IMG/VR virus record: IMGVR_UViG_3300032516_000004
Coordinates: 113,942-177,941 of that record
Length of the DNA: 64,000 nt
DNA from: a virus
Reading direction: 5' to 3' (one strand)
The translations under genes were made by a program, and so were the position numbers. The notes beneath the pieces are model-generated. The model saw only the letters and a program-made list of their open reading frames with translations, was not told the DNA's origin and ran no database searches. This document shows positions 40,706 through 47,340 of the stretch, in pieces. How positions within the stretch are numbered: the stretch's first letter is position 1; the number at the start of each line of letters is the position of its first letter.

Positions 40706-43700
40706 ATGTCCGTAATATTTACGTCTGGTGAACCACAAATGTGGTTAAAAACTTGCGGGTGTCAAAATCCAGCAATTTATTGGAGCAGTGATTTTAATGC
40801 CAGAATTTGCGGTAATTGTGGTATGGTAATTATGGAAAAGCAGGGCGAAGAAGTCAAAATTGATTTTGTGCACTTGGTTGTTCATACCCACCTAAGTTTT
40901 CTGAAGGCAACATGCAAAATTGAGGATTTAATTAATAAAGCCAAAGAATATGGTATGTCAGCTTTGGCCAAGACAGAATTAGGAAATTTATGTGGCGCAC
41001 CGTCTTTTGTAAAAGAATGTAAAGAAGCTGGTATTAAACCTATTTTAGGTACCACATTTAATACAAAAATTGGTGAAATATTTCATCCTATTACTATTAT
41101 AGCCACTAATCATGCGGGGTATAAGAATTTAGTGCGTCTTAATACGTTAGCATGGCAAATTAGGTTTGGTAAGGAACACGGTCCGTCAATACAAATAAAT
41201 GATATTATTAGTTCAGATGGCTTAATAGCCATTATTGGAGTAGAGCAATCTGGCCTGGGATTCGAATCACTTGTTACCATGTTGGCGGGTAAGATACAGC
41301 CGACATTAGCAGCTACCTGGTACAACCAACAAGATAATGATAATTTAGCAATATTAAGAGTGGTGGCTGATAAGCTACATTTACCAGTTGTTGCCACTAA
41401 TAATGTACGATATGTAAATCAGTCGGATCATGACGCATATAAAATAGCACTTAAAATAGGACACTACGATTATTTACTTCAAGATCCTGAATATTATTTT
41501 AAATCACCTGCTGAGATGGCCCAACTACCATTTGATGAAGAGTGGTATCGAAATACAATTCGCATAGCTGATTCGGTACAAGATTATCAGATCATCAACA
41601 AGGAATTTATTGTACCAACCTTTAAGGATCAGAACGGTGAGTGGGGAATAGAAGAGTCATTTGGAAAATTACAAATAGAAACCTGGAACGGGTTGGCTGC
41701 AAAAGGCTTAATTGATAAGCCAGAGTACATTAAGAGACTCGAGTATGAGCTTGACGTAATTAAGAGAAAGAAATTTGCTAGTTACTTTCTAATCATTGCT
41801 GAGATTGTTGATTATATTAAATCCAGAGGTTGGCTATCTCCTTTTGGCAGGGGATCTTCTTGCGGAAGTATGATTTGTTATTGTCTTGATATTATAGCCA
41901 TAGACCCTATTAAGTGGAGCATACCATTTGAACGATTTATTAATGAAGGTCGTATTGATTTACCAGACATTGATACCGATATCACACAAGAAGGTCGCGG
42001 CGACGTATTAAAACATATTGCTGAAGTACATGGACATGATCGTGTGGCACAGATCGCTACTTTTCAGACCATGGGTCTTAAGGCATCGATTGATAATGTA
42101 GGTAGAGCATTAGATGTTGCGTTTGTACAAAATAGAGAGCTACGCAATAAAATTCCTGAAGAGGTCGAAGAAATTGATGATCTATCAGACGATGTGAAGA
42201 AGGAACTCAATACAGTTAAGGGGTGGGCTGACAACGCTAAGTCTCTGTCTGGTATAACGAAGAATTTTGGTGTACACGCTGCTGGTATCGCAATCGCCAA
42301 TAATCCAATAGGTGATTTGGTGCCACTATTGCCTGAGATTGATGGTGTTCAGGGTGTTCAATATGATATGAAAGACCTAGAAATACTTGGTCTATTAAAA
42401 CTTGATATGTTAGGTTTGCGAAATCTTGATGTTATTCAAAATACCTTAGCCATAATTAAACAGGTTCATAATGTAGACATTGATGTTCATAATCTTCCGT
42501 TAGATGATAATCAAACATATGATATGATATCTACTGGAGATTATGTTTCAGTATTCCAGCTTGATTCGCCGGGTTACAGGAAATTAGCTCGTCAACTTAA
42601 ACCAGATAAATACGAACACATCATGGCCTTGAATGCCCTGTTCCGTCCAGGGCCACTTGGTGGTGGTATGACAGATGAATATGTTGAGAGAAGACATGGA
42701 CGTAAACCTTCTGAGAGCATGCATCCATGGTTAGATGAAGATTTATCAACAACTTATCAGCTTATTGTATTCCAGGAGCAACTGTTGGCTTTAGCAAAGA
42801 AAATTGCTGGTTTTAATGGTGTTGAAGCAGATAAATTTAGACATGCCGTAGGTAAAAAGTCACAGGTAGAATTTGATAGGGCCATGTCTAAATTTAAAGA
42901 CGGCGCTTTGAATAGAGAAGGTCTAATCCCTCCACCTGGATGTGGTAAATCTCTTGAGGCTTGGGTGGATGATCTTATAAAGAAAATATCCGGTCATGCA
43001 CGTTACAGTTGGAACCGAGGGCACTGCCTGGATGGAAGCTCGTTAGTGTTAACATGTGGTCGTGGGTTGGTTCCAATTAAATATATAAATATCGGAGAAG
43101 AGGTTTGGTCAATTAGAGAGAAGACTGGAGATATTTTTAGAAATAGAGTTATGAATGTTATTAACAATGGTAGGCGCGATACTGTGCGTGTTAGATCCAG
43201 CGATGGTAGAGAGCTTGTGACCACATCTAATCATAGGTATTTTACCTCCAAACAACAGTATAAACACGCGTCTGAGCTGAACTATACTGATAGCCTGAAG
43301 ATGCTTGATAAGGGGATTTTTAGAAGACATTTCAACATCTTTGTGACATCTATTACAAACCGTAACAAGGTTCCATTCGTCGTCAGCCTTTACAATTTCA
43401 TATGGTATAATGTGGTGAAGGCTAAGTCTTTTTTTGGTTCCACAAAAGACGCACATACACCAATCTCGTTCAAGAAGTTTATATCTAAGAGATCTGCTAA
43501 TTTTCCTAGTTTTTCGTATTTTAATACCAGATCGTCCATCTCTGAAGAACTTATAAATACTTCTGGGATTAATAAAGATCTTTCTTTCAGCCAGTCTCCT
43601 AGAGATTGCAATTTGGCTTTTGTACCCCATACTTCTTATTTCAAGGATTGCCTTTCTTACTTTTGGCGTAATTGCATAAACGCGGTTACCACTCAGACCA

Positions 43701-45325
43701 CACTCTTTGATAAATCTGGAGAGGGCAGCGGGGCTAGCTTTAAATGGAAGTTCCTCAAGTATATTCTTGCTGCCAAATCCCTGTGCGTGCAGCTTCCTAA
43801 TCAACTTTTCATGTTTATAATAGGGGTTCCGTTTTCTATTGCATATGATGCAGAGGCTATTGTTTTTGGCCGTTCTGTGAACCGTAATCTTTTTACGGCA
43901 GTCACCGCATCTGATACTCTTTGTATTCTTGGACCTGTTAAGACATCTGGGGCAATGATAGATAGGGATATTATTAGGAGTGACGAAGATATTGGAACAT
44001 TTAACACAGACTACTTCAATCTCTTTCATATAAAACCTCTGGAACAAAAGGATATTACCGACGTTACTTTTAATTCTATCACACCAGAATCAAATCGTGA
44101 AGTCTGGGATCTTACCATGGAACAAGACCCAAACTTTATAGCTAATGGTTTTGTAGTTCATAATTCAGCGGGTTACGGAATGATTACGTATGTTACTGCA
44201 TATCTTGAGACCCACTATCCGGCTGAGTATTATACTACTCTTTTAGATTCAACTGATAAAGCTGACAAGATCACTACATTAATGCGTGGTATTATGCATA
44301 AAAATTATGCGGTAGTTCCACCCGATGTAAATGAGTCTGGTGTAGGGTATGCCACTAACAATAATGTTATTTACATGGGGCTTGGTTCGGTAAGAAATGT
44401 TGGCAATTCAGCGGGTGAGATTGTTGAAGAACGTGATCGAAATGGTAAGTTTGGGTCATTTATTGAGTTTTGTCAACGTTTGTCGTCTGTTAATAAAACA
44501 GCAAAAATAAATTTGATAAAAGCCGGTGCATTTAAGTGGGATAAATCACTATGTGATCGAGATAAAGCCGATAATATTGACGTTATTAATAAGGCCGTTA
44601 GACGTAAGAACAAAAAATTTGATGGCACTAAAGTAGCGCCCATTGAGATAGCCACTGAATGTTACATTACGGGTATCGATTTCACCGATATTCAACGGCA
44701 GCAGAATGAACGAGAAGTACTAAATTCATTTATTACTGGTCATCCAGCGGCAGTTTATCAACGTCTTGCCCCGTATTTGGAAAGAGCAGACTCTCATGTT
44801 GTGTGCCCGTCCATGATTAAGGACTGTCAAGTTGGAGAAACGGTATTGTTGGTTGGCATGGTTGACACAATAAATAAGAAATTCATTACTAAAGAAGGAA
44901 GGAATCAGGGTAATCCTTATTTAGTGGTACATATTAGTGATGAACGCGATTCAACAATGACTAATATATGGTATCCAATGTGTAATGATATGGAAAAAAT
45001 ATTAGTACCTGGACAAGTTGGTATGTTTGAGTGTATAACTAGGGCAGATAAATTTAGAGAAGGTAGAATATCGTTGTCAGTTAAACATGCTGTTATGTTA
45101 ACTCATGGTTTACCAATACAAGGAATTTTTGTAAATAACGGTCATGCTCCAGAGGCCGTGTTAGCTAAAATAGGTGGCATGCTAAATCAGATTATCGATG
45201 TTGGTAATAAAAAATATGCCTCTATACGAGGTAGAATAACTGTAAATCCAGATGTTCTTGAAAATGCAGCTCACGAATTTGATGGTGTTAAATTTTTAAT
45301 CTGTATGGAGGCGTCAGATGGCTAA
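40706..45325 (+). CDS. dnaE: DNA polymerase III alpha subunit (family C) precursor containing an intein
   Basis: PHP domain, GRGSSCGS, PDIDTD, HAAG, KLDMLGLRNL, ALFRPGP, OB fold; 1539 aa minus 380 aa of intein = 1159 aa, a typical DnaE length. Confidence 0.95.
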   Translation: MSVIFTSGEPQMWLKTCGCQNPAIYWSSDFNARICGNCGMVIMEKQGEEVKIDFVHLVVHTHLSFLKATCKIEDLINKAKEYGMSALAKTELGNLCGAPSFVKECKEAGIKPILGTTFNTKIGEIFHPITIIATNHAGYKNLVRLNTLAWQIRFGKEHGPSIQINDIISSDGLIAIIGVEQSGLGFESLVTMLAGKIQPTLAATWYNQQDNDNLAILRVVADKLHLPVVATNNVRYVNQSDHDAYKIALKIGHYDYLLQDPEYYFKSPAEMAQLPFDEEWYRNTIRIADSVQDYQIINKEFIVPTFKDQNGEWGIEESFGKLQIETWNGLAAKGLIDKPEYIKRLEYELDVIKRKKFASYFLIIAEIVDYIKSRGWLSPFGRGSSCGSMICYCLDIIAIDPIKWSIPFERFINEGRIDLPDIDTDITQEGRGDVLKHIAEVHGHDRVAQIATFQTMGLKASIDNVGRALDVAFVQNRELRNKIPEEVEEIDDLSDDVKKELNTVKGWADNAKSLSGITKNFGVHAAGIAIANNPIGDLVPLLPEIDGVQGVQYDMKDLEILGLLKLDMLGLRNLDVIQNTLAIIKQVHNVDIDVHNLPLDDNQTYDMISTGDYVSVFQLDSPGYRKLARQLKPDKYEHIMALNALFRPGPLGGGMTDEYVERRHGRKPSESMHPWLDEDLSTTYQLIVFQEQLLALAKKIAGFNGVEADKFRHAVGKKSQVEFDRAMSKFKDGALNREGLIPPPGCGKSLEAWVDDLIKKISGHARYSWNRGHCLDGSSLVLTCGRGLVPIKYINIGEEVWSIREKTGDIFRNRVMNVINNGRRDTVRVRSSDGRELVTTSNHRYFTSKQQYKHASELNYTDSLKMLDKGIFRRHFNIFVTSITNRNKVPFVVSLYNFIWYNVVKAKSFFGSTKDAHTPISFKKFISKRSANFPSFSYFNTRSSISEELINTSGINKDLSFSQSPRDCNLAFVPHTSYFKDCLSYFWRNCINAVTTQTTLFDKSGEGSGASFKWKFLKYILAAKSLCVQLPNQLFMFIIGVPFSIAYDAEAIVFGRSVNRNLFTAVTASDTLCILGPVKTSGAMIDRDIIRSDEDIGTFNTDYFNLFHIKPLEQKDITDVTFNSITPESNREVWDLTMEQDPNFIANGFVVHNSAGYGMITYVTAYLETHYPAEYYTTLLDSTDKADKITTLMRGIMHKNYAVVPPDVNESGVGYATNNNVIYMGLGSVRNVGNSAGEIVEERDRNGKFGSFIEFCQRLSSVNKTAKINLIKAGAFKWDKSLCDRDKADNIDVINKAVRRKNKKFDGTKVAPIEIATECYITGIDFTDIQRQQNEREVLNSFITGHPAAVYQRLAPYLERADSHVVCPSMIKDCQVGETVLLVGMVDTINKKFITKEGRNQGNPYLVVHISDERDSTMTNIWYPMCNDMEKILVPGQVGMFECITRADKFREGRISLSVKHAVMLTHGLPIQGIFVNNGHAPEAVLAKIGGMLNQIIDVGNKKYASIRGRITVNPDVLENAAHEFDGVKFLICMEASDG
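43109..44029 (-). CDS. HNH endonuclease encoded antisense inside the DnaE intein
   Basis: CxxC ribbons, HTH-like middle, RYKLLERDWCMCVFCG...LSLHHIIP...NLVTVCNRCH; RBS GAGGT 5 nt before ATG 44029. Confidence 0.85.
   Translation of the reverse strand: MKEIEVVCVKCSNIFVTPNNIPIYHCPRCLNRSKNTKSIRCGDCRKKITVHRTAKNNSLCIICNRKRNPYYKHEKLIRKLHAQGFGSKNILEELPFKASPAALSRFIKECGLSGNRVYAITPKVRKAILEIRSMGYKSQIAISRRLAERKIFINPRSIYKFFRDGRSGIKIRKTRKISRSLRYKLLERDWCMCVFCGTKKRLSLHHIIPYEIVKADDEWNLVTVCNRCHKDVEMSSKNPLIKHLQAISIVQLRRVFILLFGGKIPMIRCGHKLSTIAGSNTHSIAPTIVNNIHNSISKNISSLLSN
44073..44101 (-). promoter_or_regulatory. Candidate promoter for the antisense HNH gene
   Basis: Minus strand TTCACG-N17-TAGAAT with extended -10 TG (TGATAGAAT), about 45 nt upstream of the ATG. 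Confidence 0.4.
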
Positions 45326-45624: not shown

Positions 45625-46425
45625 ATGATTAAATGTAATAGATGTGGTATTATGAAATTACGACGCGAACTTGTAAATAGCAAACAGCGATCAAAGGGTT
45701 ATAGACCCTTATGTAAACAATGTTATAATAAACATAGACGATTAGTTTGGCGACGATATGCTGGTTTGGTTAGGAAAGCTATTTTGAAGTATTTACAAAA
45801 ACACCCGTGTGTTGATTGTGGTGAGACTAATCCAATTGCCTTAGAATTTCATCATTTGAAGAATAAAAAATATAATATAGCTCCATTAATTGGTAAAGGA
45901 TGTAAACTTTCACGTATTATGAGTGAAATTGCTAAGTGTGATGTAGTTTGTGCTAACTGTCACAAGAAAAGAACTGCCAAACAACAAAATTGGTATAATA
46001 TGAAAACTAAGAAGTGCTGTAATTGTAAAGAAATTAAATCAGTAAAGCTATTTAATAAGCGTGGTACGGGTTATAATTCTTGGTGTAAAAAATGTTGTAA
46101 TAAATATCATAAAAAATATTATAGTAATACACGAGCAATACACTATGAGATAACTACAAGACGTAGAATAGTGTTAAGACAAAAGTTATTAGAATATCTT
46201 AAAGAACACCCGTGTGTTGATTGTGGTGAGAGTAACCCAATAACTTTAGAGTTTCATCATCTGAAGAATAAAAAATATAATATAGCTAATATTATTAAAT
46301 ATGTGTCCTCTTGGGACACTGTTTTAAAGGAAATTGCTAAGTGTGATATAGTTTGTTCTAATTGCCATAAGAAAAGAACCGCTAAACAACAAAATTGGTA
46401 CAGTAAATCCAGAAAGGTTGGATAA
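45625..46425 (+). CDS. Tandem double-HNH endonuclease
   Basis: Two near-identical HPCVDCGE.NPI.LEFHHL...KCD.VC.NCHKKRTAKQQNWY units, 405 nt apart. Confidence 0.85.
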   Translation: MIKCNRCGIMKLRRELVNSKQRSKGYRPLCKQCYNKHRRLVWRRYAGLVRKAILKYLQKHPCVDCGETNPIALEFHHLKNKKYNIAPLIGKGCKLSRIMSEIAKCDVVCANCHKKRTAKQQNWYNMKTKKCCNCKEIKSVKLFNKRGTGYNSWCKKCCNKYHKKYYSNTRAIHYEITTRRRIVLRQKLLEYLKEHPCVDCGESNPITLEFHHLKNKKYNIANIIKYVSSWDTVLKEIAKCDIVCSNCHKKRTAKQQNWYSKSRKVG

Positions 46426-46681
46426 TATGTGTGCGGAAACAATTGTTGGTGATCTAATTACCGCAGCGGGTCGTAGTATTAAATTTGGTAAAGACACCGG
46501 CATTCCGTGTCCAGATTGTGGTAAGGGTGAAAAGCCAAATATGCTTCATGTTAGGTCTATTATAGATAACACAGCCTCGTTAGAATGTCCAGCCTGCGGA
46601 TGTGTTATGAATAGGCCAAAGGAAGAAATTGAAGAAGTGCGTGACATGAAGGGTCGTTTAGTCAAAGTTCCCAAGACATGA
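46418..46681 (+). CDS. Zn-ribbon protein
   Basis: CPDC...CPAC. Confidence 0.5.
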   Translation: MDNMCAETIVGDLITAAGRSIKFGKDTGIPCPDCGKGEKPNMLHVRSIIDNTASLECPACGCVMNRPKEEIEEVRDMKGRLVKVPKT

Positions 46682-47340
46682 TCCCAAGCTATCTAAAACA
46701 AGACATACTGTGTCTAGACACCGAAACTAGTGTTTTAGGTGATCACGTGTGTGAAATTGGTTTTACATTATTTAGAAATACTGAACAGGTGTCGTCTTGG
46801 AATTCATTTGTTAAGCCTGGAATACCAATTAATCCCGAAGCAACTAAAATACACAATATTAAAAATGAAGATGTAGAAAATTCCCCATCATTCAATGATT
46901 TATCGTGGTTTATTTATAACAATATGAACGCCGCTGATTTTTGGTGTATGTACAATGCCGACTATGATATTGGTGTATTGAAAAAAGAATTCGAAAGACT
47001 CGGAATGAAGTTGCCGCCTAAGTATGTGATTGACCCGTTTATTTTGTTTAAAAGGTGGCATAAGTTCAATAAAGGCAAAAAATTAGTCAACGCTGCTGAA
47101 ACATGTGGTATACCTTATGTTGGCGCACATAGAGCTGGAAATGATGCGGCTGTAACTGGTCGTGTTCTATTTAAAATTGCTGCCACTAGGACTGATTTTC
47201 CAAAGACAATTGTTGATTACGTGAAGAAGCAACGTAAATGGTGCGAAGAACAATTTGAGGATTTGCAGGCTTATTTTGTTAAAGTTGGTAGGGGACCAAT
47301 TGATAAACCCAATTATGCTTTCTATGAGGGAATTTATTGA
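46678..47340 (+). CDS. DEDDh 3'-5' exonuclease (DnaQ/epsilon-like)
   Basis: LDTET, YNADYD, HRAGNDA. Confidence 0.9.
   Translation: MIPSYLKQDILCLDTETSVLGDHVCEIGFTLFRNTEQVSSWNSFVKPGIPINPEATKIHNIKNEDVENSPSFNDLSWFIYNNMNAADFWCMYNADYDIGVLKKEFERLGMKLPPKYVIDPFILFKRWHKFNKGKKLVNAAETCGIPYVGAHRAGNDAAVTGRVLFKIAATRTDFPKTIVDYVKKQRKWCEEQFEDLQAYFVKVGRGPIDKPNYAFYEGIY

Follow-up and report, generated by a model that had tools for sequence, protein, structure and literature searches.

A DnaE intein of large environmental phages with an HNH nuclease gene on the opposite strand in exact codon register

Canonical bifunctional inteins carry an in-frame LAGLIDADG or HNH nuclease within the intein polypeptide, between the two lobes of the splicing fold. 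Inteins with the nuclease gene on the opposite strand have been described as well: antisense LAGLIDADG genes in the Synechocystis DnaX and Chloroflexus SpoVR-like inteins, according to the account of earlier reports (Gorbalenya 1998; Gogarten 2002) given in bioRxiv 10.1101/2025.01.02.630785, and antisense LAGLIDADG or VSR-like nucleases in actinophage inteins, among which HNH nucleases were found only in frame (bioRxiv 10.1101/2025.01.02.630785). A cyanobacterial dnaX intein, present in cellular genomes, contains an overlapping LAGLIDADG open reading frame (ORF) in the +2 frame (bioRxiv 10.64898/2026.09.14.751524). Here, we analyze an intein in the dnaE gene of an environmental phage in which the opposite strand encodes an HNH nuclease in exact codon register with dnaE. 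The locus lies in the last 64 kb (39% GC) of the 177,941-bp IMG/VR record IMGVR_UViG_3300032516_000004; this 64,000-nucleotide stretch is referred to as the window, and all coordinates are positions within it.

The general arrangement is already known. What is new is that the nuclease is of the HNH type, that the host is the DnaE of ~170-190-kb phages, that the overlap reaches deep into the splicing domain, and that one zone is doubly constrained. As in the antisense-nuclease inteins, the intein is contiguous, the nuclease ORF occupies the endonuclease slot on the opposite strand, and the host frame is stop-free and unstructured there; also shared are the sporadic distribution, suggestive of ongoing invasion, and the failure of automatic annotation to detect the gene (bioRxiv 10.1101/2025.01.02.630785). 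Unlike in the published cases, the nuclease is an HNH enzyme with zinc ribbons and a helix-turn-helix (HTH) region, and the host is the DnaE of ~170-190-kb environmental phages. We found no antisense HNH nuclease inside an intein in the literature, where LAGLIDADG and VSR-like nucleases are the only antisense types listed, and HNH is therefore a new nuclease type within a known arrangement. A preceding interpretation made from the letters of the window alone (hereinafter, the sequence-only reading) knew of no described case of an antisense intein nuclease, which is contradicted by the published LAGLIDADG and VSR-like examples (bioRxiv 10.1101/2025.01.02.630785).

In the cyanobacterial dnaX case, too, a nuclease ORF overlaps an intein in a gene for replication, mini-inteins are found beside empty alleles, purifying selection differs between frames (there, low for the nuclease frame but relaxed for that of the host), and secondary invasion of a mini-intein is the proposed origin; the case differs in being a +2 LAGLIDADG system of cellular genomes rather than a codon-aligned antisense HNH system of phages. 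With canonical bifunctional inteins, the locus shares the splicing fold, the inter-lobe insertion point of the nuclease, and the logic of the homing cycle, but here the nuclease is a separate gene product that needs transcription and translation signals of its own. Fractured genes (Dassa et al. 2009, PMC2677866) likewise have a nuclease gene of the free-standing type in the endonuclease slot, in phage or environmental replication genes including dnaE; in those, however, the nuclease gene has the same orientation, and the host gene is divided into two ORFs joined by trans-splicing, whereas here, the register is antisense and stop-free, and the host gene and intein are contiguous. The ShiLan domain of a phage DNA methylase (Arsenault et al. 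2025, PMC11855218) is another HNH nuclease hidden in an alternative frame of a stop-free insertion, sporadic, apparently homing, and translated by an unexplained route, but it is encoded on the same strand in frame +3, lacks a splicing domain, and is thought to be retained in the methylase. Finally, nuclear group I introns with antisense His-Cys box genes (for example, in Porphyra; PMC2585584) also carry a mobility nuclease opposite a self-splicing element, but these splice as RNA, which requires no open frame in the host and involves no dual coding.

The dnaE precursor (Table 1) contains the Pfam domains PHP, DNA_pol3_alpha (E-value 7.6e-67), DNA_pol3_finger, HHH_6, and Intein_splicing. The host gene is unbroken, unlike a split-intein or fractured gene, both here and in 12 of 12 relatives. 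The intein scores 62.4 bits (E-value 5.6e-17, cut-off 35.8) against Intein_splicing (PF14890), and the residues Cys1, Thr and His of block B, Asp of block F, and the terminal His-Asn are invariant in all 15 homologous inteins, in which the +1 residue is Ser or Cys; the VWDLTMEQDPNFIANGFVVHN motif in the C-lobe is conserved among the homologs as well. The junction in the intein-free proteins P0053 and P0023 is identical to the extein junction of the intein-bearing P0056 and P0022. AlphaFold2 (AF2) modeling of the sense intein from 15 sequences revealed two beta-rich lobes, with pLDDT values (local distance difference test, predicted) of 76-91 and 83-89, flanking 242 residues with values of 22-32, and no Pfam domain match was detected in this middle portion. 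We infer protein splicing of the intein from the purifying selection on the sense frame of the lobes and from DnaE being essential.

The product of the antisense gene matches the Pfam HNH family (PF01844; E-value 6.6e-8, 33 bits, cut-off 21.4) along a profile that spans residues 199-237; the gene scored 37.9 bits against the HNH profile in a genome-wide scan. Among the 20 PHROG families matching the protein, 16 are annotated as HNH endonuclease, and the profile of the antisense proteins also matches IscB and a group II intron maturase, in both cases over the HNH region. In an alignment of nine antisense proteins (303-308 amino acids long), the HNH core residues C193, C196, H205, H206, C225, C228, H229, and E233 are invariant, N or D occupies position 220, and the HTH-like region carries the conserved motif LPFK.S.A.LSR..KEWG..GN. 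The AF2 model based on this alignment (mean pLDDT 72.5; predicted template modeling score 0.38) consists of ribbon strands, a helical middle, and an HNH core. A Foldseek comparison of the model with the PDB gave weak matches, none with an E-value of 0.001 or below, and the top ones are mostly HNH nucleases (Cas9 HNH, Cap5, McrA, and Gme HNH). The ORF runs past the border of the middle portion, covering about 75 codons of the splicing lobe.

Twelve further phage dnaE loci (13 in total, 34-49% GC) proved to be laid out alike, again open in both frames, once the dnaE inteins of related phages were translated on both strands, a check that the sequence-only reading had proposed. In all 13 loci, the antisense ORF is 303-308 codons long, in register 0, with a conserved ATG and a homologous product; the identity between the antisense proteins is 35-72% across the 78 locus pairs. 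The loci come from 13 independent assemblies (sources JGI, ENA, Logan, and IMG/VR). The family was reached through DnaE homologs with inteins of ~380 amino acids lacking an in-frame endonuclease domain. Among the 77 closest DnaE homologs, 11 have an intein of ~370-390 amino acids at the same place without such a domain, and four have mini-inteins there; DNA was obtained for 10 of the 11 carriers, the loci L088 and L089 being among the ten DnaE-derived loci, and L010 and L011 were recovered in an IMG/VR scan with the nuclease alignment. Used directly as queries, the antisense protein and its DNA retrieved no close relative from the phage collection, IMG/VR, or a set of 5.8 billion proteins; an exhaustive search of 1.8 billion representatives yielded only generic HNH matches (best E-value 2.2e-10) and no full-length relative, and a locus search with a six-sequence nuclease alignment returned only two loci that were already known. 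The lack of close relatives in protein databases is due to gene calling, which passes over nested ORFs.

The nearest called relative of the nuclease is P0121, a protein of 317 amino acids from a Logan contig of 2,362 bp, with 31% identity over residues 73-259 (hhalign E-value 2.6e-21). P0121 aligns through the C-terminal helices of the nuclease and itself ends exactly where the overprinted tail starts, and its C-terminus is homologous to the segment opposite the intein N-lobe. It may be an escaped or separately embedded copy of the nuclease. We considered P0121 as an intein-embedded gene and found 21 of 24 positions compatible with facing a splicing lobe; the candidate was set aside because the test is circular, P0121 being homologous to the family.

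The codons of dnaE and of the antisense HNH gene occupy identical triplets. In an antisense register with shared triplets, a stop in one frame is read as TTA, CTA, or TCA in the other. The antisense ORF contains 24 Leu and 27 Ser codons and none of these three, which occur 67 times in the 1159 codons of the dnaE exteins and 8, 15, and 19 times in three other HNH genes of the window. Given the synonymous usage of the exteins, the probability of zero forbidden codons at this locus is 4.8e-13; in nine loci, each compared with the codon usage of its own exteins, the probability ranges from 1.5e-4 to 1e-15, values that are not fully independent given that the 13 loci are akin. The remaining two antisense registers contain 8-13 and 32-65 stops in the nine loci, and in a control set of distant free-standing HNH relatives, the antisense frames are closed. 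The codon-aligned antisense register is the cheapest way to hold two frames open, because all three forbidden codons have synonyms. Together, the open frames and this codon avoidance indicate that both readings are kept by selection in the 13 loci.

The frame on which selection acts changes along the intein. In the lobes, variability is highest at sense position 3, and in the middle, at sense position 1, which is antisense position 3. Antisense identity in the middle exceeds sense identity in 78 of 78 pairs (0.35-0.72 vs 0.17-0.53). In the middle, 64% of the codon differences that involve a single nucleotide are silent for the antisense frame alone, against a neutral expectation of 21% (3.06-fold), and sense-only silent changes are depleted (0.47-fold). 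The splicing lobes show the reverse, with sense-only silent changes making up 61-78% of the single-nucleotide codon differences, 2.6 and 3.6 times the expectation. Between these two regimes lies a shared zone of ~30 codons (intein residues about 66-95, annotated at residues 70-97) where sense-only and antisense-only silent changes are both enriched ~1.9-fold, codon position 2, common to the two frames, is the least variable (0.19) and nearly frozen, and both translations have confidently predicted structure. These substitution patterns indicate purifying selection for the antisense protein throughout the middle, for the sense protein in both lobes, and for both proteins in the ~30 shared codons. 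The sequence-only reading had anticipated much of this: that the intein is intact, that its middle reads as a shadow of the antisense gene, that the minus-strand HNH ORF is a real gene, that the two frames are in exact register, that the gene avoids codons frequent in other HNH genes of the window, and that the double reading is selected for. All these claims held up, the last one through the 13 loci open in both frames; its tally of about 18 Leu and 18 Ser codons, however, is too low for the whole ORF.

Beyond the shared zone, the antisense ORF continues into a 40-codon tail. In 9 of the 13 loci, its stop is the TCA that encodes Ser in the sense motif W-S; it lies at most five codons away in all 13, and the summed log10 probability that the tail is open by chance is -7.2. 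It is conceivable, if on balance doubtful, that the ~30 codons encode two functional segments in opposite directions (the strands from block B to N4 and the C-terminal helices of the HNH nuclease) and that the tail is a newborn extension derived from the antisense of the N-lobe that has since become functional; for the tail, the conserved position of the stop and the maintenance of the open frame are the reasons to suspect function. If this were the case, a selfish nuclease and its carrier splicing element would share codons read in both directions, a natural example of dual coding that locks the two together genetically, and such dual coding would account for the presence of sister inteins at insertion points one to four codons apart.

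Table 1. Positions of the dnaE gene, its intein, and the antisense nuclease gene in the 64-kb window
Feature	Position	Strand	Description
dnaE precursor (DNA polymerase III alpha-type)	40706..45325	+	Single open frame, 1539 amino acids, continuous across the intein
Class 1 intein, 380 amino acids	43025 (Cys1)..44164 (His-Asn), then Ser+1	+	Splits the motif WNRGH↓SAGYG
Splicing (HINT) domain N-lobe, intein residues 1-98	43025..43318	+	AF2 pLDDT 76-91, beta strands; sense-only silent changes 2.6x
Sense-frame "shadow", 242 stop-free codons	43319..44044	+	pLDDT 22-32; sense-only silent changes 0.47x
Splicing domain C-lobe, blocks F and G, His-Asn end	44045..44164	+	pLDDT 83-89; sense-only silent changes 3.6x
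Putative HNH homing endonuclease gene (antisense), 306 amino acids	ATG at 44029..stop 43111-43109	-	Shares its codon triplets with dnaE
Two zinc-ribbon motifs, residues 8-63	43841..44008	-	Cys 8, 11, 26, 41, 44, 60, and 63 invariant in 9/9 sequences
Helical HTH-like DNA-binding region (predicted), residues ~74-166	43532..43810	-	Helices pLDDT 76-85; aligns to P0121
HNH catalytic core, residues 189-233	43331..43465	-	CxxC, HHIIP, W(N/D)L, CxxCH, E
Doubly constrained zone: nuclease C-terminal helices, residues 239-266	43232..43315	-	Opposite intein residues 70-97 (block B His through block N4)
Nuclease C-terminal tail, residues 267-306	43112..43231	-	Read opposite the N-lobe of the splicing domain; ends at the TCA (Ser) of sense W-S
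GAGG Shine-Dalgarno-like motif	44036..44039	-	-10 to -7, 6 nucleotides ahead of the antisense ATG
Candidate sigma-70-like promoter	44073..44101	-	TTCACG-17-TAGAAT with upstream TG; 9/12 matches, unproven

In the tree of 77 DnaE exteins, carriers of the intein are dispersed, several of them being sister to empty alleles. The exteins of P0056 (with the intein) and P0053 (without it) are 99.8% identical, with two residues differing. The window DnaE and its nearest intein-free relative, P0002, show 24, 19, and 13 differences in three 50-residue bins near the insertion site (residues 650-800), against 2-11 in most other bins, a spike that is consistent with a co-conversion tract. The trees of the nuclease and of the exteins conflict at well-supported nodes: the window locus pairs with L004 by its nuclease (support 0.995) and with L002 and L006 by its exteins (support 1.0). 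The tree of the splicing lobes largely follows that of the nuclease, and therefore, the intein and the nuclease move as a unit. The mini-inteins L090 and L091 derive from the antisense gene through in-frame deletions; in one of them, the first zinc ribbon is fused to the latter half of the HNH core, and the other lost the 5' leader through W-x-L-V-T-V-C. The empty alleles, carriers, tract, and mini-inteins represent stages of the classical homing cycle.

Over the segment just upstream of the intein (42650-43024, DnaE residues ~650-773), divergence from P0002 amounts to 2-4 times the gene background. Inteins of this family occupy three adjacent insertion points, WN↓xGH (L002 and L006), GH↓S (the window and eight others), and GH(S/A)↓C (L004, L009, L010, and L091). 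Sister nucleases differ in the class of the site (the window and L004; L009 and L011), which implies that a one-codon shift occurred at least twice. The dnaE gene of this phage clade is an intein hotspot, with LAGLIDADG inteins at three other sites (about residues 383, 688, and 718) in L006 (2001-7859) and in the proteins P0009, P0018, P0045, P0052, P0059, and P0076; the dnaE of L006 holds both a LAGLIDADG intein and an antisense-HNH intein. A second intein in the genome of the window (G000:C1:57946-58974; L093 475-3954), located in an ORF of 1160 amino acids, has a canonical in-frame LAGLIDADG domain.

We estimate at roughly 80% the probability that the locus is a composite selfish mobile element, that is, a class 1 intein in a conserved and essential DnaE motif, equipped with its own HNH gene of 306 amino acids that is antisense and in register. 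Under this scenario, the ribosome would read dnaE through 242 meaningless codons, producing a floppy loop at the usual point of endonuclease insertion, and the two splicing lobes would fold and excise the entire insert, releasing active DnaE. The HNH nuclease would be made from a separate antisense transcript. In mixed infections, the nuclease would cut or nick intein-free dnaE near WNxGH/SxxY, and the cut allele would be repaired with a copy of the intein, its nuclease gene, and adjoining extein sequence; once the element is fixed, in-frame deletions would erode the nuclease gene, leaving mini-inteins. Entry of a free-standing nuclease gene into a mini-intein is a plausible origin of the element.

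Several observations weigh against this reading, among them the kinship of the loci noted above. The patchy distribution could equally come from frequent precise loss rather than homing. The unstructured insert of 242 residues might impede splicing, its tolerance being deduced only from conservation, and the idea in the sequence-only reading that a mini-intein would splice out any stop-free insert is conjectural. A Shine-Dalgarno motif precedes the antisense ATG in only 2 of the 13 loci (here and in L004), compared with 55% of the long ORFs in the genome, and promoter-like sites upstream of the ATG are at chance level (6 vs 4.4 +/- 2.6 in shuffled sequences). Thus, the ribosome-binding site put forward in the sequence-only reading is present as GAGG at -10 to -7 but is not a family trait, and its extended -10 promoter exists as a sequence (44101-44073) without exceeding the shuffles. 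A scan of the antisense gene region for terminators found none. A regulatory role was considered for a conserved GGAACGTTCC-like palindrome that most loci have upstream of the antisense ATG, and was rejected, given that the palindrome varies at sense third positions and encodes the sense residues W-N-V/I.

The alternative that survives best, although we consider it unlikely, is that the antisense HNH protein is real but no longer, or not only, a homing enzyme, having been domesticated, for instance, to degrade the genomes of competing phages, or that, as the sequence-only reading suggested, its transcript tunes dnaE. The strong purifying selection over deeply diverged lineages, the positional conservation of the stop and tail, and the persistence of mini-inteins beside full inteins would all fit such a role. 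By contrast, the patchiness, the near-identical exteins with and without the element, and the conflict between trees are the signature of a selfish mobile element, and the fact that deletions have repeatedly eroded the gene argues that the phage can do without it.

Two other possibilities appear highly improbable. The middle of the sense frame could be a functional domain, with the antisense ORF an untranslated by-product; the sense frame is indeed open and weakly conserved (pair identity 0.17-0.53), but it has no Pfam domain and pLDDT of only 22-32, sense-silent changes are depleted (0.47-fold) and antisense-silent ones enriched 3-fold, and it is the antisense product that matches HNH, with invariant catalytic and zinc ligands. 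Alternatively, site-specific inversion could switch the HNH segment into an in-frame intein domain in some genomes, an idea suggested by the exact register, in which inversion of whole codons would fuse HNH in frame. No conserved inverted repeats surround the segment in the four loci examined, however, and the flipped state occurs in none of the 13 loci; furthermore, the antisense ORF has a conserved ATG and stop of its own and reaches ~75 codons into the lobe, and the sense frame is selected to stay open in the present orientation. Least credible, and in practice already refuted, is an artifact or chance, namely, that a normal intein with an in-frame HNH domain was inverted during assembly or that the antisense ORF is open by accident: although the window comes from a single metagenomic assembly, which one DNA run matched over one 32-base piece, 13 independent assemblies agree in the orientation and in having two open frames, inversion of an in-frame domain would bring stops into dnaE unless these were selected against, and the per-locus probabilities of zero forbidden codons and the frame-specific signature of selection speak against chance.

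The neighborhood of dnaE contains two further genes of note. Some 300 bp downstream, past one short ORF, the window encodes a Cys-rich protein of 266 amino acids (45625-46425, plus strand) that is an internal tandem duplication of an HNH-like module, with EFHHL...CxNCHKKRTAKQQNWY present twice; in contrast to the nested HNH gene, it contains 15 TTA, CTA, or TCA codons. In L002-L006, a gene for an RNase_T/DnaQ-like exonuclease, which may be the proofreading partner of DnaE, is conserved two or three short ORFs downstream of dnaE, and the window has an ORF of the same size at this position (46678-47340).

The family described here extends the hidden antisense nuclease layout beyond the LAGLIDADG and VSR-like cases, found mostly in actinophages and a few bacteria, to HNH nucleases, hosted by the replicative polymerase in a large environmental phage clade. 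The nested nucleases are never reported by gene callers, and therefore, intein surveys limited to in-frame domains misclassify such inteins as decaying or endonuclease-free and undercount active homing elements. A compact splicing domain apparently tolerates an unstructured insert of 242 residues. The findings support the view that inteins gain nucleases through invasion by free-standing genes, and the family amounts to a natural experiment on overlapping genes, with frame-specific selection, a doubly constrained zone, and every stage of the homing cycle.

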